NCBI RefSeq assembly: GCF_041886205.1
Contig: NZ_CP169029.1
Reading direction: 5' to 3' (one strand)
Source: Escherichia coli
Lineage (GTDB): Bacteria > Pseudomonadota > Gammaproteobacteria > Enterobacterales > Enterobacteriaceae
Length of the DNA: 64,000 bases
In this document: positions 7,143-53,396 of the stretch, in pieces
Layout of the letters: the number at the start of each line of letters is the position of its first letter
Numbering within the stretch: position 1 is the stretch's first letter
The notes under the pieces: generated by a model
What the model was told of the DNA's origin: nothing
What the model saw: only the letters and a program-made list of their open reading frames with translations
Databases searched by the model: none
Program-made: the position numbers and the translations under genes

Positions 7143-7475
7143 ATGACGATGTACGCAAAATCCTTTCTCGCACTTGATGGCAACGGGCGTCTGACTGGTG
7201 CCCGTACCGCACAGACTGCACCTTACGATCGCTACACTTGCCACCTTTGCGGCAGTACACTCAGATACCATCCGCAATACGACACTGAACTTCCCTGGTT
7301 TGAACACACTGACGAAGGGCTGACTAAGCACGGTCATGAGTGCCCTTATGTCAGACCGGAGTGCAGAGAAATACAACTGATTAAGCGTCTGCAGAAATTC
7401 GTACCGGATGCCTTACCCGTGGTGCGTAAAGCCAGCTGGCACTGCACGAAACAAGGCATTGGATCTTGTAGGTAA
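7143..7475 (+). CDS. GC-rich N-terminal segment with a Cys/His cluster (zinc-ribbon-like); possibly the 5' part of a frameshifted or recombined gene continuing in 7408..7725
   Basis: 110-aa ORF containing YTCHLCGS...HGHECPY; it overlaps the next ORF in another frame for 68 nt. Confidence 0.35.
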   Translation: MTMYAKSFLALDGNGRLTGARTAQTAPYDRYTCHLCGSTLRYHPQYDTELPWFEHTDEGLTKHGHECPYVRPECREIQLIKRLQKFVPDALPVVRKASWHCTKQGIGSCR

Positions 7476-7725
7476 TTTAGGAGCGGACTCTAAGCCAGTT
7501 ATCGGACGTTTGGAAGTCAGCGCTGGTAATGGGAAAGTCATAGGGCGGCAATCCAGCGACGGAAAAGTTGGTTGGCGTGTTGATTATGATCCTGAAAAAG
7601 GCACACACATATATATATGGGATTACTCACAGGGTAAAGGTCCTGGAAAAGCGGTGAAGCAAGTCATACCTTTTGAAGGCAATGAAAAGTCTTTTGAAAC
7701 AAAATTGAAACAGCTAAACAGGTAG
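7408..7725 (+). CDS. small toxin-like C-terminal domain (GC-poor), putative
   Basis: 105-aa ORF ending ...GKVGWRVDYDPEKGTHIYIWDYSQGKG...; marked GC drop relative to 7143-7440; its stop lies 5 nt before the next start. Confidence 0.4.
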   Translation: MPYPWCVKPAGTARNKALDLVGNLGADSKPVIGRLEVSAGNGKVIGRQSSDGKVGWRVDYDPEKGTHIYIWDYSQGKGPGKAVKQVIPFEGNEKSFETKLKQLNR

Positions 7726-7730
7726 AGTAA

Positions 7731-8105
7731 ATGACTTTATTTGATGAGTGTCGGGAAGCACTGAGTGCTGATTTTAATATAGTAGAGGGGCTGGCTCAGC
7801 AGGAGGCTATGGGCATTTTAAATAAGTATCCTCTCGCGAAAGGACGTGTTACTTGGTCAGAGATCAGGCATTCTGATTATGAGAGTTTTGATGAGTTATT
7901 GAGTGCAAACTCTGTAAAAAACGATGACATGTTTGTCTTTGCAGATGATGCAAGTATTCCAGTTTTTAGGTCAAATCTAAGATTAATCGCTGAAAATATC
8001 TATGACGTAACAGCTTTATCGCCCAAATTATTCATTTTTAATGATGAAGTGATAATACAACCTTTATTCCCAACTGATATGTTCCGTTTAGGAATCAAGA
8101 AATAG
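7731..8105 (+). CDS. putative cognate immunity/antitoxin protein (124 aa, acidic, GC-poor)
   Basis: Tightly coupled downstream ORF with AGGTAGAG RBS-like sequence, followed by a terminator hairpin. Confidence 0.45.
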   Translation: MTLFDECREALSADFNIVEGLAQQEAMGILNKYPLAKGRVTWSEIRHSDYESFDELLSANSVKNDDMFVFADDASIPVFRSNLRLIAENIYDVTALSPKLFIFNDEVIIQPLFPTDMFRLGIKK

Positions 8106-8122
8106 TGGGAAAGCTCGCAAAT

Positions 8123-8149
8123 CCCGGCCATTATGCCGGGATTTTTTTG
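8123..8149 (+). terminator. rho-independent terminator (CCCGGC-attat-GCCGGG followed by a T tract)
   Basis: Perfect 6-bp stem with 5-nt loop followed by ATTTTTTT immediately after the 7731..8105 ORF; may equally be the left-end hairpin of the adjacent IS200-type element. Confidence 0.5.
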
Positions 8150-8291
8150 TGCACAGAAAACCCCCGGCTAGGCTGGGGGTTCCGGAAAGCTTTCAGCTTT
8201 GAGCCAGTTATTAAAACCCCTTTTGATTTGTTAAAACACCTTGCGGTCTGGCAACTGCAAGTGTCAAACATGAAATCAAAAGGGGGTCCCA

Positions 8292-8836
8292 ATGGGGAAC
8301 GAAAAGAGTTTAGCGCACACCCGATGGAACTGTAAATATCACATAGTTTTTGCGCCAAAATACCGAAGACTGGTGTTCTATAGAGAGAAGCGTAGAGCAA
8401 CAGGCAGTATTTTGAGAAAGCTGTGTGAGTGGAAAAGCGTACGGATTCTTGAAGCTGAATGCTGTGCAGATCATGTCCATATGATTGTGGAGACCCGCCC
8501 AAAATGAGCGTATCCGGCTTTATGGGATATCTGAAAGGGAAAAGCAGTCCGATGCTTTACGAGCAGTCTGGGGATTTGAAATTCAAATACAGGAACAGGG
8601 AGTTCTGGTGCAGAGGGTACTACGTCGATACGGTGGGTAAGAACATGGCGAAGATACAGGATTACATAAAGCACCAGCTTGAAGAGGATAAAATGGGAGA
8701 GCAGTTATCGATTCCCTATCCGGGCAGCCCGTTTAATTCTGGAGGATATTTATTATCAGAAACAGGTCATATTCATATAATAAATAATGTATATAATTTT
8801 ATTGTTAAGTATGTAAAGGATAATACAGCATGGTAG
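8292..8836 (+). pseudogene. tnpA: IS200/IS605-family Y1 transposase TnpA, frameshifted
   Basis: ORF 8292..8507 (MGNEKSLAHTRWNCKYHIVFAPKYRR...HVHMIVE) and ORF 8459..8836 (...MSVSGFMGYLKGKSSPMLYEQSGDLKFKYRNREFWCRGYYVDTVGKN) together reconstruct a typical IS200 TnpA split by a frameshift near 8500. Confidence 0.8.
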
Positions 8837-19162: not shown

Positions 19163-20197
19163 TTACTGATAGGAAAATGTAAATGTTGATATTCCGTTAA
19201 CCGTACCCGGATTAATTCCCTCACCAGTATTCACATACTTTACATACAACCGGACTGAGGGTGACGTTTCCGTTCCTGTTGATAACTGCCACTGGTTTTC
19301 ATTTCCCTTTACCGGCGAATCAGGTCCAAACTTCAGGGGCGTACTGTCAGTGTTTTTGTATATTCTCAGCCCGACTCCGGTTGCAGTCGATGCCCCCGTC
19401 AGTGTGAGTATATCGCTTCTGTTGGACGGTGTGGTCGCATCAGTCAGTGTTGCCCATACTGTTACTCCGGCATCACACTGTAATTTCAGTGATGTTGTCC
19501 CGGCGACAACTTCATCACCGGATGATGGCAGTTGTCCGGCAGAAATTGCAGCCAGGCTGACATTGACTGCGGAAGGTGTCAGTAATCTGCACGATGTTAC
19601 TGTGTCATTCAGCGTAAATGGATTCAGGCTGAAATTCACTGTGGTCTGAACACTGCCTGCAGATGAACCGTTATAGGGCCTCATTCTGATACTCCCGATG
19701 CTGGTCTTCTGTACACTGTATCGCGCAGAGGAATTTCTTTTTAAAATTACAGGTGTTACACGAACAGACAGTCCCTGGGTTGATGCAGTATTAGCTCCGA
19801 CACACCATCCGGAAAAGACATTTTCCCATGAGTTTCCGCTCATCGCGGTACCCCTGGAATAATTCGTGTCCCCCATCCATATAAGGAGCCCCACCTCCTC
19901 TGTCAGCCCATAAATACTCTGCCCGTCAAGACTGCCAACCACGGGTAAATCCACTTTCCCGTCCAGCCCGACACAAAATCCCTTAGAAATACGCCAGACA
20001 TTTGCATTCTGATATCCAATGTTGTTACCGGTATTATAGACAAATGGCAGGTTATCCATTGCATGAGTTCTGGAATAAGAGCCTGGAGATGGTCCCACAT
20101 CGTTTTCCGTACTGCCAATAAATGAAACTGCCGCCTGACTGATATTGCAGCAAACCAGAATGAATACAGCCAGAAAGACCTTATAAAAATTTGTCAT
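19163..20197 (-). CDS. fimbrial tip adhesin, F17-G-like two-domain adhesin (344 aa)
   Basis: Signal peptide, then an N-terminal lectin-like domain and a C-terminal pilin domain; last gene of a major pilin/chaperone/usher/adhesin operon. Confidence 0.7.
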
Positions 20198-20198
20198 A

Positions 20199-22736
20199 TT
20201 ATTGCCTCATGCATACTACATGATGGTTTTCCGGAACAGCATTTCCCCTGGCATTTTCTCCGGACGCACTATAGTGAATGACACAACTGTCATTCTGCCC
20301 GCTTCCCCAGACTATCCTGAGCATCCCTTTTTCAGCATCCAGGTCACGTACAAATAACCGGCCTCCCTGAGCAATGTAGCCTGCAGATTTCCCGTCTGCT
20401 GTTAATGCTTCCGCGGCCATCGGCGGCGGCGTTCCGTCCGGCATCTTCACATCAAACAACATGGCTTTCCCCGTTTTTGTTGTGAAGGTCACCATGGTGG
20501 TACTGTTGGCCCGGGGAATAATTTCCCGCTCTGTTGCAGACAGTTCCACATCCGCAGCCAGCGCTGTCGGGTCGATACTGATATAATTCTTTTCGTAAGG
20601 TGTGACATACGGAACAATGCCGTTACCCCAGGGGTCCAGCCGGTTACCCGGCGCATTATTAATCACCGCCCCACCGGCACCATCAGCATGAATAACGGTA
20701 AATGTGTCACCAAGGTCATTACTGGCCGTCACACCAAACGGATGCGCCACTATTGCCCCGGATATACCGGCAGATATCTGACGGTTATGGCGACTGTCAT
20801 TCCCTGCCGTGGCCTGCAGGGTGGCCACCGGTGAACGATAACTGCCATTCACCGCATACCCTGTCGGTCCGTTTTCCTGGGTGTTCAGGGACACACCATA
20901 TGACAACTGATTGTCATCCCCGCTGACACCACTGATACTGCTCTGAATGCTGTTACTGTTTTTATCGCTGACATTCACTGTCGTGGACAGCAACGTCCTT
21001 CCCGTATCTGAAAGTGGCAGGGAAAAACTGAAAAAGAACCGGTTATCATGATGATAATCACCACTCCGTCGGGTCTGGGAAAAGCCAATCTGGTAACTCA
21101 TTTTTTTCCAGACGTTGTTATAACCGGCCTGGTACTCATTGAATGTCCCTGTATGTCCCCAGTAATGATAAGTGGCTCCGGTCAGATACAGGTTTCCCCA
21201 TCCCTCACCAAGACTCTGGTTCACAGTCAGTTGCAACTGATTCCTTGGCCGGTAACCAGTTGCACTCCTGACCGATGAATCATTAATCACATCACGATTC
21301 CTGGTCAGGATGGCATCCCGAAGACTCCAGAAGTCACGGGATGAATAACGGTAAGCCGCCAGCGTCACATTTGTACTGGTTTCCGGTATTCGTGCACTGT
21401 AACCGGCATGCAGGCTGTAGCCGCGATGTGTCGTGTCAGAACCCGGGAAAGTCGTTCTGGCCAGCGTAATATCCGTGGCAACAGCCCCCAGTGGTGTATT
21501 GAATGCCACACCACCCAGCCCTGACAGATAATGAGGTGCGGTACTCATCCCCGTATTCAGGGTGATATCATTTGTCAGCCCGTACTGCAGGGTCCCCTGG
21601 AATACGGTATCGCTGAATGTCCTGTTACCGTAACGATAACGCCCGGCTGCCACCTGCCAGCGACTGAACCCCGGGCGAACCAGTTGTGCAACCGAAGCAA
21701 ACGGCACGATAAAACTCCTGGTCTGTCCGTCTGACTCTGTCACAGTGACTGTCAGGTCACCACCATATCCACTGGGATAAAGGTCACTGATGGAGAAAGG
21801 CCCTGCCGGCACGGTAGTTTCATAAATAATGTTACCGTTCTGCCGGACAGTAACCCTGGCGTTACTTCCGGCCATCCCCCGAACCACAGGGGCATAACCA
21901 CGCAACGAACCCGGCAGCATCCGGTCATCAGAAGCCAGTCTTATTCCCCTGAGGCTGTTACTGTCCATAAGCTCACCTGTGGTGGTGAAATCCCCCAGTG
22001 TCAGTTGCGCACGCAACATGGCTATGTCGTGCTGAAGGTTCGTTTCAATACTCCGGTAACCTTCTGCATGACCGTCACTCCAGCTTTCTGTCCCCCGGTG
22101 ACGAAATGCCCAGCCTCCTGCGTTAAAGCCGGCACGAAGACCAAGATAACTCTGATTATTTTCCATATCGGGCGTCCGGTAACGCCAGTGATTCACGTCA
22201 TAACTGACAAAGGCAGCCGGCACCCCCGTCTGCCACTGAGAAGGTGATATGTATCCCCGTGGACGGGAAACCAGCATGGCCTGCGGAATTTCAACATTCA
22301 GCCGCAGCAGTGACAGGTCAAAACGGATTTTGGCATCAGGTACAACTGCAGAAAATGGCATGCAACGACCATTTCCGGTATCCGGTTCACGGGCAACGGC
22401 CTCGGGTGACACATCCAGAATGGATAACAGTTCCGGCGTCACACACAGAACACTCTCCTCCTGTGAAGAGGACATATCACGGAATGACAATTCCGCATTT
22501 CCTTTCCATTCACCGTTCAGATAAATGTCTGAATAATAATTCCCTGAGGGAACAGGATTCCCGTGCGTGAAACGACGGACATCAATCACACTGCTCCCTG
22601 GCGTGCGGCTCAGAAAACTCGGGTCAAATTCTGCATCCTCTGCCGCCCACAAAGGCGCAGACAGCATATAAAGTCCCGGCAGACAACATAAATAAATGAC
22701 ACGATATTTCAGACCGGATAAAGAATAATGACTCAC
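20199..22736 (-). CDS. fimbrial outer-membrane usher (845 aa)
   Basis: Size and position between the chaperone and adhesin genes; typical usher length. Confidence 0.85.
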
Positions 22737-22749
22737 TTACGGGCCCTTA

Positions 22750-23472
22750 TTATTTCAGAACGGATTCACCTTTCTGGTAACCACCATTATCATTCACCAC
22801 CGTCCATTCCACTTTTCCTGACGGAGAAACCTTCTGCTTCAGTCTGAAAGTGACAGATGAAAACGGTGCGGCCATCCCCCCCTGAGTACTGCTGACTTTC
22901 TGAGCTCCCTGTCCGACACTGACAGTACTGAAGGTAATAAAATAAGGCGTGGGATTACTGGCCTGAAGGGTATCACCGCCTGTAAGCTGCCATGTCACTT
23001 TCTTATATGCATCATCAGGAGAAAAAGGCAGACCATCAGGACGGAAAAAAAACTTAATCCGGGTGCGTACGGCAAACTGAAGGTAATTATATCCCTGTGC
23101 TTTTTCAGATTTTCCGGCAAAAGAAGGTTTGGCCGGAATATCAAGAACATTCAGCCAGAACAGTGATTCCCTGTCTGCCGGAAGTTTTTCTCCCGTATAC
23201 ATAATTCGCATTGTCTGTCCGGAAAGCGGCTCCATCCGGAAAACAGGAGGCGTAATAATAAACGGCACCCTGACAGAGTCAGGAGGGGAAGACGGGTCCC
23301 CTGTATCAAGCCATGCCTGTATCAGGGATGGCGTACTGTCTCCGTTATTCAGCCGGACATTAATACTTTTTTGTTCTGCAGGATAAATAACCCTGGTCCC
23401 CATAATAACCACACTGCCATATGAGGGCAGAGACAAAAGAACGGTAAAAATGAACAGCAGAATATGTTTCAT
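22750..23472 (-). CDS. periplasmic fimbrial chaperone (PapD-like)
   Basis: Start MKHILLFIFTVLLSLPSYG at 23472 with a GGAG RBS; about 240 aa, immediately upstream of the usher. Confidence 0.85.
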   Translation of the reverse strand: MKHILLFIFTVLLSLPSYGSVVIMGTRVIYPAEQKSINVRLNNGDSTPSLIQAWLDTGDPSSPPDSVRVPFIITPPVFRMEPLSGQTMRIMYTGEKLPADRESLFWLNVLDIPAKPSFAGKSEKAQGYNYLQFAVRTRIKFFFRPDGLPFSPDDAYKKVTWQLTGGDTLQASNPTPYFITFSTVSVGQGAQKVSSTQGGMAAPFSSVTFRLKQKVSPSGKVEWTVVNDNGGYQKGESVLK

Positions 23473-23539
23473 ACAGGCTCCGTAAACACGGGGCAAAATG
23501 CCCCGTGAACACTTAAGAAGGCAGGTATTAAGATAAAAA

Positions 23540-24088
23540 TTACTGATAAGCGATGGTGTAATTCACAGTGGCAGAAACGTTGCCGGCGGTGGCCTGACCT
23601 GTTGCATAGTACTGTGCGTTATAACGTAATGTCATTGCGTCATTATTAATAACAACAGGTGTTACTCCCTGATTAGCAGAATCATTACCAAGTAGTATCT
23701 GTGTGGTACCATCAGCATTCAGAAGCTGAATCTGGACTTTTGTTGCGTTACCAGAGCCACTACTTGAAATATTAAGGTTATGGCTATCATAATCAGTGGT
23801 CGCATTAGGCTCAAAATAAGCCTTCACACTTTGAGCTCCTGTAGCGGCAGCAGTATTACACCCACTCAGTGAAATTGTGAAAGGAGTAAGGCCTGCTACC
23901 TTCCCGGTTGAATCTAATGATTTTGTGGAGACAGTTGGTAGTGTAACTGTCAAGGGATCGGTTCCTGTAGTAACAGAACAAGTTTGATCAACAACTTTTC
24001 CATTAAAAGTAATTGTACCGTCATAAGCAAGTGTAGCAGAAGATGACGCAGCCGCCAGTATTCCAAGGATAAATTGAATTTTCCGCAT
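23540..24088 (-). CDS. major fimbrial subunit, F17-A-like pilin (182 aa)
   Basis: MRKIQFILGILAAASSSATLAYDGTITFNGKVVDQTCSV...NYTIAYQ resembles F17 major pilins (resemblance judged from memory, no alignment run). Confidence 0.8.
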   Translation of the reverse strand: MRKIQFILGILAAASSSATLAYDGTITFNGKVVDQTCSVTTGTDPLTVTLPTVSTKSLDSTGKVAGLTPFTISLSGCNTAAATGAQSVKAYFEPNATTDYDSHNLNISSSGSGNATKVQIQLLNADGTTQILLGNDSANQGVTPVVINNDAMTLRYNAQYYATGQATAGNVSATVNYTIAYQ

Positions 24089-25856: not shown

Positions 25857-26443
25857 ATGAAAAATATCCCGCTTCCTGATAATATCGACCAGCTGAAAGC
25901 CCTGTTGCGTCAGCAGCAGGTTGCTGTGGAACAGCTAAATGTTACCATGAAAAAGCAGCAGGCCCGGCTGCGCCAGTACGCCGGACAGGTTGCCGACTAC
26001 GAACAGGAAATCGAACGGCTGAAGGCACAGCTTGATAAGTTGATAAGCTGCGGCGGATGCTGTTCGGGCAGAGTTCAGAGAAAAGCCGCAATAAACTGGA
26101 AAATAAAATCCGCCAGGCAGAGAAGCGGCTGGCTGAGCTGGAAAACCGTCTTGCAGCGGCAAAACGCTGTCTGCAGGACGATGAGCCCACTGTCAGTACG
26201 GTTGAGCAGGCAGAGCCCCCGGTGGCGGTCGCCCCACAGGACCGGCCTGCACGCCGCTCCCGTCGTCAGAAACTGCCGGCAGACCTGCCACGTGAAACCC
26301 GGCGCATCACCCCGACAGTGACTGTCTGCCCGAAATGCGGCGGCGACCTGAAGGTGATGAGTGAAACCGTCTCAGAGCAACTGGAGATAATCCGCAGCGC
26401 CTTTAAGGTCATCGAAACGGTGCGCCCGAAGCTGGCCTGCAGC
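25857..26443 (+). pseudogene. tnpC: IS66-family TnpC, N-terminal part, frameshifted by an 8-bp duplication and truncated
   Basis: MKNIPLPDNIDQLKALL...QLDKL then frame shifts at the duplicated TTGATAAG (26033..26048); continues in the 26057 frame (MLFGQSSEKSRNKL...CPKCGGDL...) and ends at the junction with cdiA. Confidence 0.75.
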
Positions 26444-29400
26444 GGTGTGCTTGTTGGTTCCGCCCTGAATACACAGTCACAGACCCTGACCAACAGTGGT
26501 CTGTTGCAGGGGGAGGCCTCACTCACCGTTAACACACAGAGGCTTGATAATCAGCAGAACGGCACGCTGTACAGTGCTGCAGACCTGACGCTGGATATAC
26601 CGGACATCCGCAACAGCGGGCTTATCACCGGTGATAATGGTTTAACGTTAAACACTGCCTCCCTCAGCAATCCGGGAAAAATCATCGCTGACACGCTGAA
26701 CGTCAGGGCGACCACGCTGGATGGTGATGGTCTGTTGCAGGGCGCCGGTGCACTGGCGCTTGCAGGCGACACCCTCTCACAGGGCCGTAACGGACGCTGG
26801 CTGACGGCGGGCGACCTCTCCCTCCGGGGTAAAACACTGCATACCGCAGGGACCATGCAGGGACAGAATCTCACCGTGCAGGCGGACAACTGGGCGAACA
26901 GTGGCTCCGTGCTGGCAACCGGTAACCTTACTGCTTCGGCAACCGGTCAGTTGACCAGTACCGGCGATATCATGAGCCAGGGTGACACCACGCTGAACGC
27001 AGCCACCACGGACAACCGGGGCAGTCTGCTTTCGGCCGGCACGCTCTCTCTTGATGGAAATTCACTGGATAACAGCGGCACTGTCCAGGGTAACCATGTC
27101 ACGCTTCACCACAGAAGCACTGACAACAGCGGTACGGTCACGGGGCTGAGCGGTCTGACCCTGCACAGCGCGGACGGGCTTACCAACAGTGGCGCGCTGC
27201 TGAGCCAGAACTCGCTGGCGCTGAGCGCAGGAGATGTGACCAACAGCGGCCGGATTCAGGGGCAGAACATCACTCTGGATGCCAGCAGCCTGACCAGCAG
27301 CGGTGCTGTTCAGAGTGCGCTGGATTTGGCTCTGACCCTGAGTGGCGATGTTATTGCTGCCACCGGCAGCAAAATTACCGCCATGGGCGATGCCCGCCTG
27401 ACCGGGAAAGTGCTGGGTAACCAGGGATTAATCAGCGCGAAGACGCTGGAAGTGAATGGTGATTCGCTCAGCAACAGTGGCGAAATCAGTGGTGTTAACA
27501 GCCTGAACGTGACACTCAGTGGTAATCTGCAACAGCACGGTAAAATGCTGACAGGCGGTGCATTAAACGTCAACGCCAGAGACATCAGCAATAGTGGGCA
27601 GCTTCAGGGGGCGGATAACCGAATCACCGCCAGTTCGCTGACCAACTCAGGTCGTGTGCAGGGCGACAGCGGGCTGACTCTTACATTGCTGAATGCCCTG
27701 ACCAACCAGACCAGCGGTGTGCTTCTCAGCCAGAACGTATCAGCGCTTTCCGCACCCGTGCTGACCAATGACGGCACCATTCAGGGCAACGGTAAAACCA
27801 CGCTCAGCGCGGCAACGCAGGCCCACAACAGTGGCAAGATTCTTTCCGGCGGTGAGCTGACGTTCACCACGCCGGACTACAGTGGCAGTGGCTGGCTACA
27901 GGCCACTGACCTGCTGCTGAACGTGGCGAAGCTTGCCGGTAATGGCACTGTGATGGCGGCGAATCAGGCAACGCTCACAGGTAACAGTCTGACCAACCGT
28001 GGCCTGTTCCAGGCCGCACAACTGAACGTCAACACGCAGACCATCACCAACAGCGGCACGCTGCTGGGTAATCAGGGCCTGACAATAAAAGGGAACAGCC
28101 TGAACAACGCCGGCGGGAAGGTATTCAGCGGCGGTGATATGCTTGCTGATATGGTCTCGCTCAGCGGCGCGGGCCAGCTGGTTGCACTCGGTAACCTGAC
28201 GCTGAAGCTCACCCGTGGTTTGACAGCACAGGGCGTTATCGCCGCGAATAAACAACTCTCCGTCAGCAGCCAGGGTGATATTACCAATGGCGCCACATTG
28301 CAGGGCAACGGTATCACGCTGAATGCGGCGGGCAGGCTGACCAACAATGGCCAGTTGACCGCCGGCAACGGCACCACGGCACTGAGCGGCAGCGGGATTG
28401 CGATGAATGCCAGCGGCAGCCTGCAGGCAGGCGGGGACGTCAGTCTGACCAGCCGGGGGGATATCACTCTCGACGGTTTTACCGGCACGACGGGTAGTCT
28501 GATGTTAACGGCCGCCGGGTCAGTCATTAACGCCGCACTGTTGTATGCGGGCAATAACCTCTCGCTGTTTGCCAGCACCATCCGGAACCATCACGGCGAT
28601 ATGCTGGCGGGTGACAGCCTGGTGATGCAGAAAGATGTCAGTGGTGCCGCGAATGCTGAAGTGATTAATACCTCCGGGAATATCGAAACCACCCGCGGTG
28701 ATATCACCATCAGAACCGGACATTTACTGAATCAGCGGGAGGGTATAAATGAGACAAAATCATACATTCCGGTTGAGAATGTCGCAGTACCTGATGGTGC
28801 AAATTCTGTTTCAGTCAGAGTGGGCGATTTAGGTGAAGATGGATGGGGATATTATGTGAAGTCCTGGAGCGGTACTGCCGGTGGTGGTTTTGAGGCATGG
28901 GCCGTTCCGACTGAAAAGGGAGCCACCCGGAAATTTCTGACTGGCACAACACGCGTCGATGTTGGTGCAACAGGGGGGGATGCCAGAATTTCGGCCGGGA
29001 ATAATCTGCTGATTGACGCGGACAAACTGGATAATACGGGAAGTCATCTTCTTGCCAGCGAGTTTGTCAGCCTGTCGGGTTCACAACTGAATAATCAGTC
29101 CTTCTTTGGCTATACACAGGATGAATACAATGTGTATCGCTATTACGGCAAACTGGCCATGATCCCCAACGACGGGCATCTGCAGTATGGAGATGCTTCT
29201 GCCGATGATCGCGTTACCTTTACTCTCTCCGGAGCTCCGGAATATGTCACCAGAGACACCGGTCAGGCTCTGAGAGCCGTGATTCAGGCAGGCAAAAATG
29301 TCACTGCCGTTTTTTCCAGTGATATCAGTAATACATCCACAACCTCAAATGCAGGACGGATCACAAATACCCTTGCGGCACCTGAAATTAACACGCCGGC

Positions 29401-29553
29401 AGAGAAAAATATCAGCCCGGGAATGGCTCAACTGGCGCCGGATGGCACAGAGACGCTGACCGTCACGGCCCCGGACTGGACTGACACCATTACCCGTCTG
29501 ACGATCGGCAGTGGTACGGACCTGGCTTCCGGCATCGTGGTGGGGAACTATCC
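26444..29553 (+). pseudogene. cdiA: cdiA internal segment (filamentous haemagglutinin-type repeat region), 5'-truncated and fused in frame to the tnpC remnant
   Basis: Long Gly/Asn/Thr/Ser-rich repeat region (...LTNSGLLQGEASLTVNTQRLDNQ...); no cdiB or CdiA secretion domain upstream; interrupted at 29553 by IS186. Confidence 0.8.
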
Positions 29554-30892
29554 CATAAGCGCTAACTTAAGGGTTGTGGTATTACGCCTGATATGATTTA
29601 ACGTGCCGATGAATTACTCTCACGATAACTGGTCAGCAATTCTGGCCCATATTGGTAAGCCCGAAGAACTGGATACTTCGGCACGTAATGCCGGGGCTCT
29701 AACCCGCCGCCGCGAAATTCGTGATGCTGCAACTCTGCTACGTCTGGGGCTGGCTTACGGCCCCGGGGGGATGTCATTACGTGAAGTCACTGCATGGGCT
29801 CAGCTCCATGACGTTGCAACATTATCTGACGTGGCTCTCCTGAAGCGGCTGCGGAATGCCGCCGACTGGTTTGGCATACTTGCCGCACAAACACTTGCTG
29901 TACGCGCCGCAGTTACGGGTTGTACAAGCGGAAAGAGATTGCGTCTTGTCGATGGAACAGCAATCAGTGCGCCCGGGGGCGGCAGCGCTGAATGGCGACT
30001 ACATATGGGATATGATCCTCATACCTGTCAGTTCACTGATTTTGAGCTAACCGACAGCAGAGACGCTGAACGGCTGGACCGATTTGCGCAAACGGCAGAC
30101 GAGATACGCATTGCTGACCGGGGATTCGGTTCGCGTCCCGAATGTATCCGCTCACTTGCTTTTGGAGAAGCTGATTATATCGTCCGGGTTCACTGGCGAG
30201 GATTGCGCTGGTTAACTGCAGAAGGAATGCGCTTTGACATGATGGGTTTTCTGCGCGGGCTGGATTGCGGTAAGAACGGTGAAACCACTGTAATGATAGG
30301 CAATTCAGGTAATAAAAAAGCCGGAGCTCCCTTTCCGGCACGTCTCATTGCCGTATCACTTCCTCCCGAAAAAGCATTAATCAGTAAAACCCGACTGCTC
30401 AGCGAGAATCGTCGAAAAGGACGAGTAGTTCAGGCGGAAACGCTGGAAGCAGCGGGCCATGTGCTATTGCTAACATCATTACCGGAAGATGAATATTCAG
30501 CAGAGCAAGTGGCTGATTGTTACCGTCTGCGATGGCAAATTGAACTGGCTTTTAAGCGGCTCAAAAGTTTGCTGCACCTGGATGCTTTGCGTGCAAAGGA
30601 ACCTGAACTCGCGAAAGCGTGGATATTTGCTAATCTACTCGCCGCATTTTTAATTGACGACATAATCCAGCCATCGCTGGATTTCCCCCCCAGAAGTGCC
30701 GGATCCGAAAAGAAGAACTAACTCGTTGTGGAGAATAACAAAAATGGTCATCTGGAGCTTACAGGTGGCCATTCGTGGGACAGTATCCCTGACAGCCTAC
30801 AAAACGCAATTGAAGAACGCGAGGCATCGTCTTAACGAGGCACCGAGGCGTCGCATTCTTCAGATGGTTCAACCCTTAAGTTAGCGCTTATG
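29554..30892 (+). mobile_element. IS186 (IS4 family), 1339 bp, with a 10-bp target-site duplication GGAACTATCC
   Basis: Terminal inverted repeats CATAAGCGCTAACTTAAGGGTTG (29554) and CAACCCTTAAGTTAGCGCTTATG (ending 30892); GGAACTATCC at 29544-29553 and 30893-30902; the cdiA frame is restored across the insertion. Confidence 0.9.
29609..30721 (+). CDS. insL: IS186 transposase
   Basis: 370-aa product MNYSHDNWSAILAHIGKPEELDTSARNAG... from the ATG at 29609. Confidence 0.9.
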   Translation: MNYSHDNWSAILAHIGKPEELDTSARNAGALTRRREIRDAATLLRLGLAYGPGGMSLREVTAWAQLHDVATLSDVALLKRLRNAADWFGILAAQTLAVRAAVTGCTSGKRLRLVDGTAISAPGGGSAEWRLHMGYDPHTCQFTDFELTDSRDAERLDRFAQTADEIRIADRGFGSRPECIRSLAFGEADYIVRVHWRGLRWLTAEGMRFDMMGFLRGLDCGKNGETTVMIGNSGNKKAGAPFPARLIAVSLPPEKALISKTRLLSENRRKGRVVQAETLEAAGHVLLLTSLPEDEYSAEQVADCYRLRWQIELAFKRLKSLLHLDALRAKEPELAKAWIFANLLAAFLIDDIIQPSLDFPPRSAGSEKKN

Positions 30893-30902
30893 GGAACTAT
30901 CC

Positions 30903-33900
30903 CCTGCCTTCCGGTAACAATGGTTATTTTGTCCCGTCCACGGACCCGGACAGTCCGTATCTGATTACGGTGAATCCGAAACTGGATGGTCTCGGAAAGG
31001 TGGACAGCAGTCTGTTTGCCGGACTGTATGACCTGCTCAGGATGCACCCCGGGCAGGCACCACGTGAAACAGACCCGGCGTATACTGATGATAAACAATT
31101 CCCGGGCTCATCGTATTTTCTTGACCGGCTCGGGCTGAAACCGGAAAAAGATTATCGCTTCCTGGGGGATGCCGCTTTTGATACCCGCTATGTATCGAAC
31201 TATATGCTGAACCAGATCGGGGGGCGCTATATCAACGGGGTTGGTTCAGACACCGACCAGATGCGCTACCTGATGGATAACGCTGCCCGTGCACAGAAGG
31301 CGCTCGGTCTGAAGTTTGGTGTGGCACTGACAGCAGACCAGGTGGCGGCTCTCGACCAAAGTATTCTGTGGTATAAAGCCGTCACGATAAAGGGTCAGAC
31401 GGTGATGGTGCCGGAAGTGTATCTGTCACCGAAAGATGTGACGCTGCAGAACGGCAGTATTATCAGCGGTCAGAATGTGCACCTGGCAGGAGGGAATGTC
31501 ACTAACAGTGGCAGTACCCTGATGGCGCAGAATGATCTCACCATCGACAGCGCTGACAGTCTGGGTAACCTTGAGTCCGGGCTTATAAATGCCGGTGGCG
31601 CTCTCGGACTGAAAGCGATGGGCGATATCAACAATATCAGTGCCACGATTACCGGTAAGACTGTCCGGCTGGAGAGTCTCGCCGGCAATGTCAATAATCT
31701 CACCCGGTACTCACACTGGCAGCTTGATGCACCGGAAGACAGCCTCGCCCTGAAACACACTTATACGGGAAGCATTGCCTCTGTCAGTGCCATGGATAGT
31801 CTGGACATCCGGGCAGATAAAAACATTTCGGTCACAGGGGCAGAAATCAGCGCCGGAGGTCGCGCAGCACTTATTGCCGGCAATGATCTCAGTCTGAATG
31901 CCATTGACAGGGTAAGCAGCAGTCGCCATGCAAACAGTGAATCTCACCAGCGCAGTGCAGAACTTACGACCATTACTGCCGGCGACAGTGTGATGCTGAG
32001 TGCAGGCCGGGATGTGAGCAGTCAGGGTGCAGGTATCGCAGCGGAAGACAACATCACTGTCCGGGCCGGGCGCGACGTTAATCTGCTGGCGGAAGAGTCC
32101 GTGACCGGCAGCAGTTCATACTCGAAAAAGAAAACGGTCATTGATGAAACCGTTCGCCAGCAGGGAACGGAAATCGCCAGCGGTGGTGACACCACCATTA
32201 CTGCAGGACGGGATATCACCGCTGTTGCGTCATCCGTTACCGCAACCGGCAATATCAGTGTGAATGCCGGTCGTGATGTCGCCCTGACCACGGCGACAGA
32301 AAGTGACTATCACTATCTGGAAACGAAGAAAAAAAGCGGAGGTTTTCTCAGTAAGAAAACCACCCACACCATCAGTGAGAACAGTGCCACCCGTGAAGCA
32401 GGCGCCCTGCTGTCGGGGAACCGCGTGACCGTTAACGCCGGTGATAACCTGACAGTACAGGGTTCGGATGTGGTGGCTGACCGGGATGTGTCACTGGCGG
32501 CGGGTAACCATGTTGATGTTCTTGCTGCCACCAATACAGATACGTCCTGGCGCTTTAAGGAAACGAAGAAATCCGGTCTGATGGGTACCGGCGGTATTGG
32601 TTTCACCATTGGCAGCAGTAAGACAACGCACGACCGCCGCGAGGCCGGGACAACGCAGAGTCAGAGTGCCAGCACCATCGGCTCCACTGCCGGTAATGTC
32701 AGTATTACCGCGGGCAAACAGGCTCATATCAGCGGTTCGGATGTGATTGCGAACCGGGATATCCGCATTACCGGTGACAGTGTGGTGGTTGACCCGGGGC
32801 ATGACCGTCGTACTGTGGACGAAAAATTTGAGCAGAAGAAAAGCGGGCTGACGGTTGCCCTTTCCGGCACAGTGGGCAGTGCCATCAATAATGCGGTTAC
32901 CAGTGCACAGGAGACGAAGGAGAGCAGTGACAGCCGTCTGAAAGCCCTGCAGACCACAAAGACAGCGCTGTCTGGTGTGCAGGCCGGACAGGCTGCGGCA
33001 ATGGCCACCGCAACCGGTGACCCGAATGCGACGGGAGTCAGCCTGTCGCTCACCACCCAGAAATCGAAATCACAACAACATTCTGAAAGTGACACAGTAT
33101 CCGGCAGTACGCTGAATGCCGGGAATAATCTGTCTGTTGTCGCAACCGGCAAAAACAGGGGCGATAACCGCGGAGATATTGTGATTGCAGGAAGCCAGCT
33201 TAAGGCCGGTGGTAACACAAGCCTGGATGCCGCGAATGATATTCTGTTGAGTGGCGCTGCAAATACACAAAAAACAACGGGCAGGAACAGCAGCAGTGGC
33301 GGTGGCGTGGGTGTCAGTATCGGTGCCGGTGGTAACGGTGCCGGTATCAGTGTCTTTGCCAGCGTTAATGCGGCAAAAGGCAGCGAGAAAGGTAACGGTA
33401 CTGAGTGGACTGAAACCACAACAGACAGCGGTAAAACCGTCACCATCAACAGTGGTCGGGATACGGTACTGAACGGTGCTCAGGTCAACGGCAACAGGAT
33501 TATCGCCGATGTGGGCCACGACCTGCTGATAAGCAGCCAGCAGGACACCAGTAAGTACGACAGTAAACAGACCAGCGTGGCTGCCGGCGGCAGTTTTACC
33601 TTTGGCTCCATGACCGGCTCAGGTTACATCGCTGCCTCCCGGGATAAGATGAAGAGCCGCTTTGATTCCGTTGCTGAACAAACCGGAATGTTTGCCGGTG
33701 ACGGCGGCTTCGACATTACAGTGGGCAGACATACCCAACTGGATGGTGCGGTGATTGCCTCCACTGCCACACCGGATAAAAACCACCTGGATACCGGAAC
33801 GCTGGGGTTCAGTGACCTTCACAACGAAGCGGATTATAAAGTCAGTCACAGTGGAATCAGTCTGAGCGGTGGTGGCAGCTTCGGGGATAAATTTCAGGGT

Positions 33901-35406
33901 AACATGCCGGGTGGCATGATATCCGCCGGAGGTCACAGCGGACATGCGGAAGGAACGACTCAGGCCGCAGTGGCAGAAGGCACTATCACCATCCGGGACA
34001 GGGACAATCAGAAGCAGAATCTGGCGAACCTGAGCCGTGACCCTGCGCACGCTAATGACAGTATCAGCCCGATATTTGACAAGGAGAAAGAGCAGAGGCG
34101 TCTGCAGACAGTGGGGCTTATCAGTGACATAGGCAGTCAGGTGGCGGATATTGCGCGTACACAGGGAGAACTGAATGCGTTGAAGGCCGCGAAGGAAGCA
34201 ACCGGCGAAACACTTCCTGCTAATGCAACAGAGAAACAACGTCAGGAATATCTTGCGAAACTGCGTGACACGCAGGCTTACAGGAATGAAATGGCGAAGT
34301 ATGGCACTGGTAGTGAAATTCAGCGGGGTATCCAGGTCGCGATGGCAGCGCTTCAGGGCCTGGCGGGCGGCAATATGGCAGGCGCGCTGGCAGGTGCTTC
34401 AGCGCCGGAGCTGGCGAACATCATCGGTCATCACGCGGGTATTGATGACAATACAGCTGCAAAAGCCATTGCCCATGCCATTCTCGGTGGTGTGACAGCA
34501 GCCCTTCAGGGCAACAGTGCGGCAGCAGGCGCAATTGGCGCGGGTACTGGCGAAGTGATCGCGTCAGCCATTGCGAAAAGCCTCTACCCGGACGTAGATC
34601 CGTCGAAACTGACAGAAGAGCAGAAGCAAACTGTAAGCACGCTGGCAACGCTGTCAGCGGGTATGGCCGGCGGTATTGCCAGTGGCGATGTGGCTGGCGC
34701 GGCTGCTGGGGCTGGTGCCGGGAAGAACGTTGTTGAGAATAATTTACTTGGCGGTAGTGAAGATGCTCAGGCTGCGTGGATACGCCAGCATGGTATCGAC
34801 ATGGCGACATGTGCAGAAAACCCTTCCGGTGCCGCCTGCCAGAAAGCAATGAATGAGAGGGATGCTGTAGGGCTGGCTCTGGCAACAGGTACAGTGGCAC
34901 TACTCCCCGGTAGTGCTCAGGCTATGTGGGGACTGGGAGCAAGTGCGAATGCTGGTATCAGTTATCTGGCTGATGGTACTGTAGATCCGGCAAACGCAGC
35001 CATTGCAGGCTGGGTGAATGTGTTCAGCATGGGTAATGGCCTGGCGGGGACTGTGGGCTGGAATGCGGCAGGTGGTGCGCTGGGTAACTGGATCGACAAC
35101 AAAGATCCTCTGTCTGGTGCAATTTCAAATGGTATCGGTTCTGCTGCCGGGTATGGTATCGGTAAAGGTGTTACTTGGGGGACAGATAAGATTACGAATG
35201 CTGTAGGAAAATGGGTGACAAATGGCTGGGATCCTAAGTACGATCCAACATGGATAAAATATGCTGAAGTAAATCGTAACGATATCATTCGAGAAGGCAT
35301 GAAACCGAGCAATGTTCCTGGAACTGCTGGAGATATTGGCGGTTCTATAGGATCTGAGCTAGGTGGAAAAGTAACAGATAAAGTATCTGAGGAACTCAAG
35401 AAATGA
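30903..35406 (+). pseudogene. cdiA: cdiA 3' portion: repeat region, pretoxin region, VENN motif (34732..34743) and a Gly-rich C-terminal toxin domain (CdiA-CT)
   Basis: In-frame continuation of 26444..29553 once IS186 and one duplicate are removed; ...[15 protein letters not shown]... precedes a Gly/Ala-rich CT resembling membrane-acting CdiA-CTs. Confidence 0.8.
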
Positions 35407-37809: not shown

Positions 37810-39173
37810 GACAGAAATAGGATATTGCCGGGCTCAGCCGGGACCCGGAAAACGCCAACGGCAGCATTGCACCGATATTTGACAGGGAGAAAGAGCAGAA
37901 GCGTCTTCAGGAAGCGCAGGTTATCAGCCAGATTAGCGGTCAGATGAGTAACATCGTCATGACGTATGGCGAAACTGAAGCGATGAAAGCAGCCAGGAAA
38001 GAGCATCCTGGCATGAGCGATGCACAGTTGCGGGAGACTCCGGAATACAGAGAGGTCATGAAAGGCTACGGTACGGGCAGTACGCCGCAGATGGTGGTAC
38101 AGGCCATCACAGGCGTGCTGGGCGGACTGAATGCAGGGAATCCGGGGCAGGTACTGGCTGGCGGTCTGAATCCGGCAGTGGCACAGCTTATAAAACAGGC
38201 CACCGGCGATAACCGGGAAGCAAACCTGATGGCTCACGCAGTCTGGGGAGCGCTTGCCGCACAACTGGGCGGAAACAATGCGGCTTCCGGTGCTGCAGGG
38301 GCATTCAGCGGTGAACTTGCAGCCCGGTATATCATTGATAACTACTACGGTGGTCGTACCGATAACCTGAGTGAACAGGAACGTCAGCAAATCAGCATGC
38401 TGGCCACCATTGCCTCAGGTATTGCGGGCGGGCTTGTCGGCAACAGTACAAGTGCTGCCGGTACGGGGGCACAGGCAGGCAGGAACTCGGTTGAGAATAA
38501 TGCGCTGAGTCTGGTTGCCAGAGGCTGTGCGGTCGCAGCACCTTGCAGGACTAAAGTTGCAGAGCAGTTGCTGGAAATCGGGGCGAAAGCGGGCATGGCC
38601 GGGCTTGCCGGGGCGGCAGTCAAGGATATGGCCGACAGGATGACCTCCGATGAACTGGAGCATCTGATTACCCTGCAAATGATGGGTAATGATGAGATCA
38701 CTACTAAGTATCTCAGTTCGTTGCATGATAAGTACGGTTCCGGGGCTGCCTCGAATCCGAATATCGGTAAAGATCTGACCGATGCGGAAAAAGTAGAACT
38801 GGGCGGTTCCGGCTCAGGAACCGGTACACCACCACCATCGGAAAATGATCCTAAGCAGCAAAATGAAAAACCTGTAGATAAGCTTAATCAGAAGCAAGAA
38901 AGTGCGATTAAGAAGATCGATAACACTATAAAAAATGCTCTGAAAGATCATGATATTATTGGAACTCTCAAGGATATGGATGGTAAGCCAGTTCCTAAAG
39001 AGAATGGAGGATATTGGGATCATATGCAGGAAATGCAAAATACGCTCAGAGGATTAAGAAATCATGCGGATACGTTGAAAAACGTCAACAATCCTGAAGC
39101 TCAGGCTGCGTATGGCAGAGCAACAGATGCTATTAATAAAATAGAATCAGCCTTGAAAGGATATGGAATATGA
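37810..39173 (+). CDS. orphan module 3: pretoxin region, VENN and a distinct C-terminal toxin domain, derived from a different cdiA allele
   Basis: ...[26 protein letters not shown]... parallels the main cdiA pretoxin region (34010-34740); VENN within [14 protein letters not shown] track 37944..39173. Confidence 0.7.
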
Positions 39174-39556
39174 TTACCTTACGTAAATTGATTGGAAACA
39201 TCAATATGACAAAAGAGCCTGAGCAACAATCACAGCTTGAACTCTGGTTCGAACGTATCATAGATGTGCCTCTTGAAAAGTTAACAGTGGAAGATCTTTG
39301 CCGCGCTATCCGACAAAATTTATGTATTGATCAGTTGATGCCAAGAGTGTTGGAAGTTCTAACTAAAGAGCCGTTAGCGGGTGAATATTACGATGGTGAA
39401 CTAATTGCAGCTTTATCAACGATAAAAGGAGAAGATCTAAAAGATCAGAAAAGTACCTTTACCCAAATAAGGCAACTTATAAACCAGCTAGAACCGTCAG
39501 ATATTAACGATGATTTAAGAAAAGATATATTAAAAATCAATCAGATAATTGTATAA
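39170..39556 (+). CDS. orphan cdiI immunity 3 (128 aa, soluble)
   Basis: ATGA overlap with the module 3 stop; product [43 protein letters not shown]... Confidence 0.6.
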
Positions 39557-39588: not shown

Positions 39589-41380
39589 GTGTGCCGGGCA
39601 TGTTCAGCAGCTCGGGGGTGAAAGTCCCCTGTCCAGCCTGATGGTGGCGAAGGACTAGCGAAGCGCAAGGGCGTCGTCGTAAGGCGGGGTCTGAAGGAAG
39701 CGTGAAGCAAATCCATGACCTGACGAACAGAAATCCGATACGAGGCCTACCCGGTTGGCGGAGCAAGCAAAGAATTGCGAAGGCCATAACCATCAAGAAC
39801 CGGGGGGTAAATCGGACAGGTGTGTGGTGAAGGCGTCTGAACTTACCCCGGGAGGCCTGTCCGTCGTTCTGTATCTAGAACTTAGCGTACCGTAAGGGGC
39901 GCTGACCGGCGGACAGGAGTCAGCAGAGGGCATAGTAGGGCATGACACCCGAAGGCCCGAACGGTAATGAGTGACGAGTATCAACGGAGGTTCTGAACGG
40001 TCATGCAGCAGAAAACGCATCGCGCCCCTGAGGCCGGAGAACGGGGTGAAGCCCCGAACGCCGCCCTTCCGGGGGCTGAAACCGTGCAGGCACCGACGAA
40101 CAGAGAAAGTCCGTCGTCAACAGTGTGGCTGATGGAAGCCATTTGTGAACCAGTCAATCTCAGGCAAGCCCTGAAAAGAGTTAAAGCCAACAAAGGTGCA
40201 GCGGGAGTCGATGGTATGCGCGTAAGCGAACTGCCGGACTACCTGAGGCACCACTGGCCAGAGCTGAAAGCGCAACTACTGTCTGGCAGATACCGCCCAT
40301 CTCCTGTGAGAAGAGTGTCCATACCGAAGCCCGGCGGCGGCGAACGTCTGCTGGACATCCCGACGGTGGTGGATCGCTTCATCCAGCAGGCGATGATGCA
40401 GGTATTGCAGGGGCACTGTGGGATAGCTCGTTCAGCGATAACAGCTACGGGTTCCGTCCCGGTCGTTCGGCCCACCAGGCAGTGATACAGGCCCGGGAAC
40501 ATATCGGGGCCGGGTATCACTGGGTGGTCGACCTCGATCTGGAGAAGTTCTTCGACCGGGTAAATCACGATGTGCTGATGAGCCGGATAGAGAAACGAGT
40601 ATCGGATAAACGGGTGTTGTCACTTATCCGCAGGTTCATGAATGCAGGGGTGATGGACGCAGGTCTGGTAAGGCCGGTGACAGAAGGAACGCCGCAGGGC
40701 GGCCCACTGTCGCCGCTGCTATCGAACCTGCTGCTTGACGACCTCGACAAGGAACTGGAGAAACGTGGTCTGAAGTTCGTGCGGTACGCAGACGACTGTA
40801 ATGTCTACGTGAAAAGCGAACGGGCAGACAACCGGATCATGGCGGGGTTGACGCACTGGCTGAGCCATAAACTGAAGCTGAAGGTCAACGCGAAGAAGAG
40901 TGCTGTAGCACGCCCTGAAACGCGCAAGTTCCCTGGATACAGCTTCATAAGGGGGCGGAAGGTATGGTGCGTGGTATCGCCGGAGTCGATAAAACGGTTC
41001 AAAATGCGGATAAGAGCACTGACCGGACGCAACACAGGGAGAAGCCTTGAACAGCTAACCCGGTTGCTAAAACGATATCTGACGGGCTGGAAAAGTTACT
41101 ACGGGCTGAACCAGAGGCCATCGCTGATGCGAGAGCTGAACGGATGGATAAGGCGCAGTCGAGGCGTAAGCAAGGACCTTGCGGCGCAAACAGCAGGAAG
41201 CTGCCATAAAGAGTGGCGGATAAGCTGTAGTCCGGCACTGAATATAGCACTCCCCAATAATCTGTTCTCCAGACTGGGCCTGCCAGAAGTATAGGCAGGC
41301 GACGATCAACATAACCGAACCGCCGTATACGGCCCCATACGTACGGTGGTGTGGGAGGAAGCTGATCGTGAGATCAGCTC
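39589..41380 (+). mobile_element. bacterial group II intron (about 1.8 kb) with a frameshifted intron-encoded protein
   Basis: 5' GTGTG at 39589; internal ORFs encode reverse-transcriptase motifs including the YADD box; a domain V-like hairpin (ACCGCCGTATACGG...ACGTACGGTGGT) lies near 41318-41350; the 3' boundary is approximate (about 20 bp either way). Confidence 0.7.
40003..41294 (+). pseudogene. group II intron reverse transcriptase/maturase split into two ORFs by a frameshift
   Basis: ORF 40003..40485 ends ...QGHCGIARSAITATGSVPVVRPTRQ while the next frame reads SSFSDNSYGFRPGRSAHQAVIQAREHIG... and continues into ORF 40482..41294, which carries ...FVRYADDCNVYV... Confidence 0.75.
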
Positions 41381-51906: not shown

Positions 51907-53367
51907 TCAATACGGTTCTGACGAGTCGCTTACTTTTGTGCTGTCGCCAAAATCACTAATCCCTCTCACAATAAGCGCTGGAACTCCCTGCTTTTCGCAG
52001 GCATCAAATACCCCATAGGCTTCCATTTCGGCAACACAGGCTTTGTCATGAAGCGACCTGAAACGTTCTAGTAAAGCAGGATCGCGGATAAGAAGCTCTC
52101 CTGATGCGATAGTGGCTGAAGAAACAATTATCCCAGCAGCTACGTCTCCAGCCTGCGAATTTTCAGGCATTTCGAGTCCTATAGCCTGTGCCCGTTCGCC
52201 AAGACGTGCGGATAGTGACGTTGTTGCAAGGTAAGTATTGAGGTTTTGTTTAGTTGGCATATGGAGACATAATATTTCAGGTCGAGGAGCAAACTTCCCA
52301 CCTTCTAATGCGGCTGCACTTTCATAATAAATGACACGCTCAGAAATAATGACTTCACCTAGCACCATTTTTTCTCTCAACCCCGCCGCAATCCCCATCA
52401 TCAAGACTTTTTGGGGTTTGAATTCCGACAACAACATGGTAGTAATAGCTGAAGCATTCACATTTCCAGCACTAGCGAAAGACGCCACTATGCCAGTTAC
52501 TGGGCCATCTGAGCGTTGTATGGATGTGGACCAGAAATGTATTCCATTTGATGTGAGCCGCGGAGATTCATCATCAGCTATGCCAAATACTTTCTTGGCT
52601 GCAGCAAGTTCAACTGGTAGAGCTGTCAAAATCAACACATTTGGAGTATGCAGCAACTGTTGTGCAGCCCATTCAGCTTTAAGCAATTCAACTGCGATTT
52701 CTGAAAGTCGTTCCAGTCCATAGTAAGGTTCCTGTAACGATAAAGTGTCGAGCTGATTTTTTACGGCTTCACCGGTGCAAGGGAACATAGACAGCGGCTC
52801 TGCATAAAAACGTGCATGTAGGCCTAAAGCACCTTTTCCGTCATCGCAAATTCCCCCAAGCTCCAAGTCAAACGGTAATATGGGGTGGTTGGCTTTACGC
52901 ATTTTACTCGCACGATCGGAAACGCCTTTTCCTCCACCTAATGCAATCATGGCTGTGGCAGCATCAACCTGCTCGCTTCCAATATTTCCTCCAGTAATGA
53001 GATCATCATCTAGATAGCTGACATCAGCAAATCTAGCTGCCTGAAGTTTACGAATAAGCATCCGATTCTCTTCAGACATTTTCTCCCGCATTGCAGAACG
53101 CGACGTGACGATCTTGAGTTGGTGGGCTGGCGTATAATTCTCCATTAAATCTACAGCTTCTTTTACTATCGTCCAGTCGAAGGTCAGGAGATCCCCATTT
53201 TCATTAACAGGTTCTCCTGCCAAATAGACAACTAGTCCCACATTTGCATCAAGGATGCTCTTCGTCAATGCTCGAACGAAACTATGTGCTCGATCAATAT
53301 AAAGTTTTTCTGTATTTTTGGATATACTTCCAGCGATCAGAACATACTCATTATTAGTATTTGTCAT
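51907..53367 (-). CDS. two-domain defence-effector candidate: N-terminal Rossmann-like putative ligand-sensing domain (SLOG-like?) fused to a C-terminal nucleoside-phosphorylase (PNP/MTA-nucleosidase) domain; the 3' end is replaced by IS66 terminal sequence
   Basis: ORF 51907..53382, ATG at 53367. C-terminal half ...KVLMMGIAAGL...GEVIISERVIYYES...CVAEMEAYGVFDACEKQGVPALIVRGISDFGDSTK is phosphorylase-like; N-terminal half has ...YVLIAGSIS...VGLVVYLAG...IALGGGKGV... The last 8 codons (VSDSSEPY) are read from the reverse complement of the IS66-5 terminal repeat. Confidence 0.6.
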   Translation of the reverse strand: MTNTNNEYVLIAGSISKNTEKLYIDRAHSFVRALTKSILDANVGLVVYLAGEPVNENGDLLTFDWTIVKEAVDLMENYTPAHQLKIVTSRSAMREKMSEENRMLIRKLQAARFADVSYLDDDLITGGNIGSEQVDAATAMIALGGGKGVSDRASKMRKANHPILPFDLELGGICDDGKGALGLHARFYAEPLSMFPCTGEAVKNQLDTLSLQEPYYGLERLSEIAVELLKAEWAAQQLLHTPNVLILTALPVELAAAKKVFGIADDESPRLTSNGIHFWSTSIQRSDGPVTGIVASFASAGNVNASAITTMLLSEFKPQKVLMMGIAAGLREKMVLGEVIISERVIYYESAAALEGGKFAPRPEILCLHMPTKQNLNTYLATTSLSARLGERAQAIGLEMPENSQAGDVAAGIIVSSATIASGELLIRDPALLERFRSLHDKACVAEMEAYGVFDACEKQGVPALIVRGISDFGDSTKVSDSSEPY

Positions 53368-53396
53368 CACAATTCTTCCCAAAGGAGTATTACTTG

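Follow-up and report, generated by a model that had tools for sequence, protein, structure and literature searches.

A decayed orphan cdiA-CT/cdiI module abutting a DUF7828 gene in an Escherichia coli genomic island is probably the product of a large deletion

The locus described here lies in a window of 64,000 nucleotides, the whole stretch of Escherichia coli DNA that was analysed (contig NZ_CP169029.1, assembly GCF_041886205.1). With good confidence, it was interpreted as the remains of an array's last orphan cdiA-CT/cdiI module, in which a deletion of ~22.5 kb joined a DUF7828 gene out of frame to the toxin-coding DNA, leaving an inert toxin remnant and cdiI as an orphan immunity gene. The identities of the parts, the joint between them and the undeleted arrangement in a related island were all observed directly in the data. 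The toxin/immunity pair itself is already known and annotated in RefSeq, and is present here in a decayed form.

An earlier note made from the letters of this DNA had described two open reading frames (ORFs) overlapping out of frame, a Cys/His cluster, a third ORF of 124 aa at a spacing of 5 nt and a terminator hairpin. All of these were found in the sequence (Table 1). The overlap between the first two ORFs was 68 nt, and the toxin frame ended with TAG at 7723−7725, leaving the 5-nt spacer before the next ATG at 7731. The terminator-like hairpin (8119..8144) comprised 10 pairs, six of them G-C, and was followed by a T-run. In the three segments 7143−7446, 7447−7725 and 7731−8105, the GC content was 0.526, 0.434 and 0.368, and the GC3 was 0.535, 0.366 and 0.328, respectively. 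The abrupt drop in composition that had been placed near 7,470 was therefore confirmed, with its position corrected to 7446/7447. An IS boundary, which the note had allowed as another source of the shift, was ruled out, as IS200 begins only at about 8154, on the 3' side of the module. On identical loci, RefSeq annotates a 'DUF7828 domain-containing protein', a pseudogene ('hypothetical protein, incomplete, missing N-terminus') and a 'CDI toxin immunity protein'.

Table 1. Coordinates of the features of the locus and of the CBASS genes in the same window
Feature	Position	Strand	Basis or remark
110-aa ORF	7143..7475	+	Contains CHLCGS and HGHECPY
DUF7828 island gene lacking its 3' end, WP_000271032.1	7143..7475 (RefSeq start 7149)	+	Pfam PF25165
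105-aa ORF, other frame	7408..7725	+	Contains GWRVDYDPEKGTHIYIWDY; C-terminal end ...LNR
Fortuitous 5' extension of the toxin frame (MPYPWCVKPAG)	7408..7440	+	DUF7828 DNA, supplies the ATG
Deletion joint	7441..7446	.	Three-way comparison: window, L002/L007 (intact DUF7828), L003/L004/L005 (cdiA-CT)
cdiA-CT remnant, T162-R255 and stop	7441..7725	+	Matches to 5T86_A and A0 34/86 cdiA
Intact cdiI, 124 aa, WP_000171784.1	7731..8105	+	5 nt after the toxin-frame stop; Pfam PF24172 and 5T86_I match
Intrinsic-terminator-like hairpin and T-run	8119..8151	+	Scan and fold
Decayed IS200	8154..8836	+	STnc490 5'UTR sRNA 8159−8282; frameshifted tnpA from 8292; RefSeq on identical loci
CBASS PNP-superfamily/TIR effector	51907..53382	-	
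CBASS WYL regulator	53397..54296	-	
CBASS cyclase	54466..55410		
CBASS HORMA	55407..55895		
CBASS TRIP13	55895..56791		
CBASS DEDDh exonuclease	56849..57451		

The product of the 110-aa ORF matched the DUF7828 family (E-value 7e-30) over positions 1−87 of the 87-position model, with no other domain. NCBIfam and PADLOC scans of this ORF gave no match, and no literature on DUF7828 was found. Compared with an intact 133-aa DUF7828 protein, it was 88% identical over residues 3−103 and diverged after about residue 101. The codons were native up to about this residue, and the last nine codons and the stop were cdiA-CT DNA read out of frame. The C-terminal zinc ribbon PF11682, carried by most homologues, was absent from the window protein. 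The exact chimeric protein was present on at least 1000 contigs. In the intact island of strain CE0011b, the DUF7828 gene overlapped a second zinc-ribbon gene (WP_001221615.1) by 13 nt (L007 22958..23781), an arrangement which suggests that the two genes form a conserved two-gene unit.

For the 105-aa ORF, Pfam, NCBIfam and PADLOC scans gave no match, and its identity came solely from a PDB sequence search, in which it was 97% identical to residues 12−106 of 5T86_A ('CdiA toxin'; E-value 3e-58). According to its title, this entry is the crystal structure of a CDI complex of E. coli A0 34/86. The product of the third ORF was 98% identical to chain I of 5T86 across all 124 residues (E-value 3e-78), and also matched the Pfam family CdiI_ImmP, described as 'EcoliA0-like' (E-value 7.9e-36); NCBIfam and PADLOC scans of it gave no match. 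The E-values of the DUF7828, toxin and immunity matches lie well outside what chance would produce. In A0 34/86, a full-length cdiA ends with the same CT followed by cdiI, and its last 285 nt together with cdiI were 98.6% identical to the window at the nucleotide level. The GC-poor part of the locus had been read as a toxin C-terminal domain with its immunity gene, and with 97−98% identity to PDB 5T86, that reading is upheld: the pair is CdiA-CT/CdiI.

Compared with the crystallised immunity protein, the window CdiI has two changes, L27M and S39R, and Ala occupies position 38 in one joint-bearing relative (G38A). The cdiI changes seen within the joint-bearing lineage, S39R and G38A, were all non-synonymous, which could reflect relaxed selection instead of maintained function. 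They fall in adjacent codons (7843..7845 in relatives), and three of the four base changes in the module within this lineage alter amino acids (N219Y in the toxin; G38A and S39R in CdiI). The exact CdiI protein was found on 891 contigs. The hairpin at 8119−8144 was also present 3' of cdiI in A0 34/86, where no IS200 follows, so it is an original part of the cdiI module at its 3' end, and its assignment to IS200 was ruled out. The gene in the window keeps both its native ribosome-binding region and its terminator.

To locate the joint, the window was compared base by base with its two parents. Homology to the DUF7828 side stopped at 7446 and homology to the cdiA-CT side started at 7441, and the 5-nt microhomology ACTGC (7441−7445) was common to both. 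The DUF7828 parent reads ...GCCAGCTGGCACTGCA followed after the breakpoint by GACAATG..., the cdiA parent reads ...AACTGGGAAACTGCT followed by CGAAACAAGG..., and the window reads ...GCTGGCACTGCACGAAACAAGG... across the same position. A megablast search of positions 6400−8300 was performed against 5426 complete E. coli genomes. Of these, 4162 had the DUF7828 side, but no more than 16 had the entire stretch; the remaining alignments ended at 7446. With positions 7440−8160 as query, the toxin/immunity side was found in 122 of the 5426 genomes and always started at 7441. Most of these 122 copies lay at the 3' ends of cdiA genes or in orphans annotated with a 'VENN motif pre-toxin' domain. In nine of the 16 joint-bearing complete genomes, the alignment was in two pieces; the one of these nine that was examined, CP55_Sichuan (L009), had a deletion of ~34 bp at ~8128..8163, so that the cdiI terminator hairpin is left without its 3' half and IS200 without its left end.

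An undeleted arrangement was found in the same island of CE0011b. From left to right, this carries genes for Ag43, a GTPase, YfjI, an AlpA-like HTH protein, Hha and Gp2, followed by the intact 133-aa DUF7828 gene and the second zinc-ribbon gene. Gentisate-pathway genes and IS elements come next, then a decayed cdiA with orphans, and finally a VENN-bearing orphan cdiA-CT, cdiI, a frameshifted IS200 and IS66. The orphan cdiA-CT/cdiI lies 22.5 kb beyond the intact DUF7828 gene. Window positions 6093−7446 aligned with L007 21901−23255 at 94.6% identity, and positions 7441−9065 with L007 45735−47359 at 99.7%. On the right side, the window was colinear for ~5.5 kb with the end of the CE0011b cdi orphan array, with one IS differently placed. 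Since the left flank is only 94.6% identical, CE0011b serves as a model of the ancestor and is not the ancestor itself. A deletion is the parsimonious direction of change, because both of the shortened genes have complete counterparts elsewhere.

The reverse direction would be an insertion, with a mobile cdiA-CT/cdiI fragment, possibly together with IS200, entering or abutting the DUF7828 gene much as CT/I modules are displaced at cdiA 3' ends. This was judged very unlikely. Neither the lost 3' portion of DUF7828 nor the partner genes that follow it recur after the module, and the only other parts of the window that matched the deleted interval overlapped an IS66 element or lay downstream of the second cdiA. 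The joint shows no duplication and has only the microhomology, and the cut falls inside the toxin domain instead of at VENN, the usual site of CT exchange. The horizontal exchange of CT/I modules is known, IS200 adjoins the module, and the difference in identity between the two flanks is a hint of a recombinant history; however, the right-hand colinearity places the module at the end of the orphan array in the same type of island, 3' of an intact DUF7828 gene.

Under the preferred reading, a deletion, what remains of the toxin was then considered. Residues of CdiA-CT are numbered from VENN in A0 34/86, giving 255 in total, and the remnant lacks residues 1−161. Gone with them are VENN (PF04829), the stretch from VENN to the crystallised domain and the initial part of that domain; the lost post-VENN region contains Cys and gave a weak match to DUF6862. 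The conserved toxin domain is not complete, as the joint removes everything before T162, including L154 and E161, two conserved residues of the N-terminal helix. Among 164−170 relatives, from which all conservation counts were drawn, L154 was conserved in 112 of 124 and E161 in 136 of 148. The family motif R207-x-D209-x-D211...K214-G-x-H217-I-N219 is kept in the remnant as R207-V-D209-Y-D211...K214-G-T-H217, with R207, D209, D211, K214 and H217 all retained and N219 replaced by Tyr. This N219Y change, a dinucleotide substitution at 7611−7612 (ATCAAT>ATATAT), was present in the window and in two identical genomes. It falls within the conserved HIN motif beside the putative catalytic H217, at a position that is Asn in 154 of 164 relatives (94%). 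As a tandem double substitution, it also lengthens a TA run. A second change in the remnant, I249K, is shared with the CE0011b orphan, which likewise has K249.

DUF7828 DNA read in another frame supplies codons 1−11 of the 105-aa ORF, its ATG among them, and T12 and A13 lie in the common joint. Inspection of the sequence upstream of ATG 7408 revealed no evident Shine-Dalgarno sequence. An AlphaFold model of the chimeric ORF was mediocre (pLDDT of 63, with residues 1−21 below 50), and its sole significant PDB match was 5T86_A; given this single match, the model gives no independent support for the fold class. The 5T86 toxin has been classed as BECR-fold, with no published characterisation, and its D209 was equated with D192 of Rhs2, which is essential for Rhs2 toxicity (bioRxiv 10.64898/2026.05.10.723254). 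A review of CDI (PMC9086364) makes no mention of 5T86, and no literature on the A0 34/86 CDI system was found. The remnant may retain some activity, as D209, D211 and H217 are kept and the 105 codons that start with an ATG contain no stop, but it is probably neither translated nor active.

If the 105-aa chimera were made from ATG 7408 and were toxic, the deletion could have created a new intracellular toxin-antitoxin (addiction) pair, in which CdiI neutralises the chimera and loss of the island is punished. The retained motif residues D209, D211, K214 and H217 would fit such a pair, as would the open frame with its ATG, the spacing of only 5 nt between the two genes and the wide spread of the allele. 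Instability of the antitoxin, which an addiction module would need, is not known for CdiI. Against the pair also stand the lack of a Shine-Dalgarno sequence, the loss of the N-terminus of the conserved domain with L154 and E161, the substitution at the 94%-conserved position 219 and the RefSeq annotation of the fragment as a pseudogene. Even the intact orphan of EC93 gave no detectable CdiA-CT protein (PMC3150448). The chance of an addiction pair was therefore considered slimmer still than that of an insertion.

The toxin domain family comprised 450 representatives at 50% clustering, in which the domain was nearly always at the extreme C-terminus. In 55 long carriers, the upstream domains were PT-VENN/haemagglutinin repeats, PT-HINT, PT-TG, RHS, LXG and VgrG-type Phage_GPD, and DUF7828 was not among them. 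Judged by this distribution, the domain is a genuine polymorphic-toxin C-terminal domain. A total of 321 DUF7828 homologues were detected, and the best 120 of these were all small proteins (~100−230 aa) consisting of PF25165 with or without PF11682; none of the 120 contained a toxin domain. By the same kind of comparison, the DUF7828 zinc-ribbon ORF is unrelated to toxins and is not a toxin scaffold.

The view of the earlier note, that this ORF provides a conserved N-terminal scaffold for a variable toxin domain from which a frameshift, whether programmed or due to decay, has split it, would account for the overlapping ORFs and the abrupt GC drop but has hardly any probability left, as these best homologues are small and free of toxin domains, the carriers of the toxin family are CdiA, HINT, TG, RHS, LXG and VgrG-type proteins, and the toxin frame continues upstream in relatives as CdiA with VENN, not as DUF7828. 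Homologues with the zinc ribbon and the toxin domain in one polypeptide, which that view had led one to expect, were found neither among the best 120 of the 321 nor among the 55 long carriers. DUF7828 proteins are small, stand-alone island proteins, and in the homologues the two ORFs occur as genes that are separate from, and unrelated to, each other. The note had also called the copy decayed or frameshifted: it is decayed, but what looked like a frameshift is the joint of a ~22.5-kb deletion between unrelated genes. Programmed frameshifting was ruled out for the same reason, the two frames stemming from unrelated genes.

Three known kinds of locus can be set beside the window. The CdiA-CT/CdiI pair of A0 34/86 shares the gene order, the 5-nt spacer and the 3' terminator with it; the window toxin differs in being detached from CdiA, in lacking CT residues 1−161 and in its N219Y and I249K changes, and the window CdiI in L27M and S39R. 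With the orphan cdiA-CT/cdiI modules (PMC3150448), the window shares a detached toxin-CT fragment, homologous to the C-terminus of full-length CdiA, and directly 3' of it an intact cognate gene of the CdiI family, with a likely role in the immunity repertoire. The undeleted CE0011b version is a classic VENN-bearing orphan, the last of its array, whereas the window copy has no VENN and lies neither downstream of a cdiBAI locus or orphan array nor 3' of a cdiA or of another cdiI, abutting the DUF7828 gene instead. The third kind is the DUF7828 genes of CP4-like enterobacterial islands (PF25165 and PF11682), to whose common 133-aa product the N-terminal 101 residues are 88% identical and which have the same neighbours (Gp2-family, Hha, AlpA-like and YfjI genes); in the window, PF11682 is replaced by nine out-of-frame residues and the partner zinc-ribbon gene is deleted.

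Based on these comparisons, the most probable course of events would start from a decayed CDI locus in a CP4-like genomic island (Ag43, GTPase, YfjI, AlpA-like HTH, Hha, Gp2, DUF7828). Illegitimate recombination at the ACTGC microhomology would have removed ~22.5 kb, from about codon 101 of DUF7828 to codon T162 of the orphan CdiA-CT, joining the two out of frame and depriving the DUF7828 protein of its C-terminal PF11682 zinc ribbon. The toxin remnant would be undeliverable, because it is not attached to CdiA, the other cdiA (25857−35406) carries a frameshift and an IS that splits it, and no cdiB was seen. The sole working part would then be cdiI, whose product would bind and block toxin domains of the A0 34/86 type when CDI-positive neighbours inject them.

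Transcription of cdiI would probably come from read-through of the upstream Gp2/DUF7828 genes. Promoter scans of the + strand from 5600 to 8400 found no sigma-70-like promoter, and no convincing terminator was found between DUF7828 and cdiI. Translation start signals are usually absent from orphan cdiA-CT genes (PMC3150448), and in EC93 the orphan CdiI was made and was protective, while the orphan toxin protein was undetectable (Poole et al. 2011, PMC3150448). By analogy, the intact cdiI of the window probably acts as an orphan immunity gene. A more far-reaching proposal is that, by placing the orphan cdiI behind the Gp2/DUF7828 genes, the deletion made immunity independent of a cdi promoter, that its spread to at least 1000 contigs reflects selection for an immunity-only arrangement where that CdiA type circulates, and that the changes at CdiI positions 38−39 are adaptive tuning to toxin variants; this is speculative and was considered unlikely.

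The decayed IS200 that follows the module adjoins it in the undeleted arrangement as well and is not part of it, homology to A0 34/86 stopping at 8153. Its 5'UTR contains STnc490, an Hfq-binding sRNA (Rfam RF01405, 141.7 bits), which is intact beside the frameshifted tnpA. A second decayed CDI locus was found 18 kb 3' of the module. Its large cdiA (25857..35406, + strand) is frameshifted and split by an IS at ~29554..30892, with an IS66 tnpB upstream in place of cdiB and small ORFs downstream. Beyond these is a further VENN orphan fragment, which has a cdiI of its own (37821..39173 and 39170..39556). Taken on gene content, the strain is probably unable to deliver CDI toxins, and it seems to have kept immunity genes while losing toxin delivery.

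Other systems were also noted in the window. According to the near-identical genome ZYB39, an F17 fimbrial operon (f17A, chaperone, usher and the f17G adhesin) is at 19163..24088 on the - strand, between IS66 elements in the same island. A reverse transcriptase (RT) is present in two ORFs on the + strand (40003..41294), with the N-terminal part at 40003..40482 and the C-terminal part at 40482..41294; the two matched consecutive parts of one PADLOC RT profile, and they are probably one frameshifted RT gene. A type III CBASS anti-phage system occupies 51907..57451.

Beyond correct annotation, the significance of the locus is small. As seen here, two genes brought together by a deletion can look like a toxin grafted onto a scaffold. 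The toxin type is biochemically uncharacterised despite its solved structure, and this shortened copy is a poor entry point for its study. The locus illustrates how orphan CDI immunity genes outlast a decayed delivery system, and if cdiI is expressed, it would add one more immunity specificity to the repertoire of the strain in inter-strain competition among E. coli.
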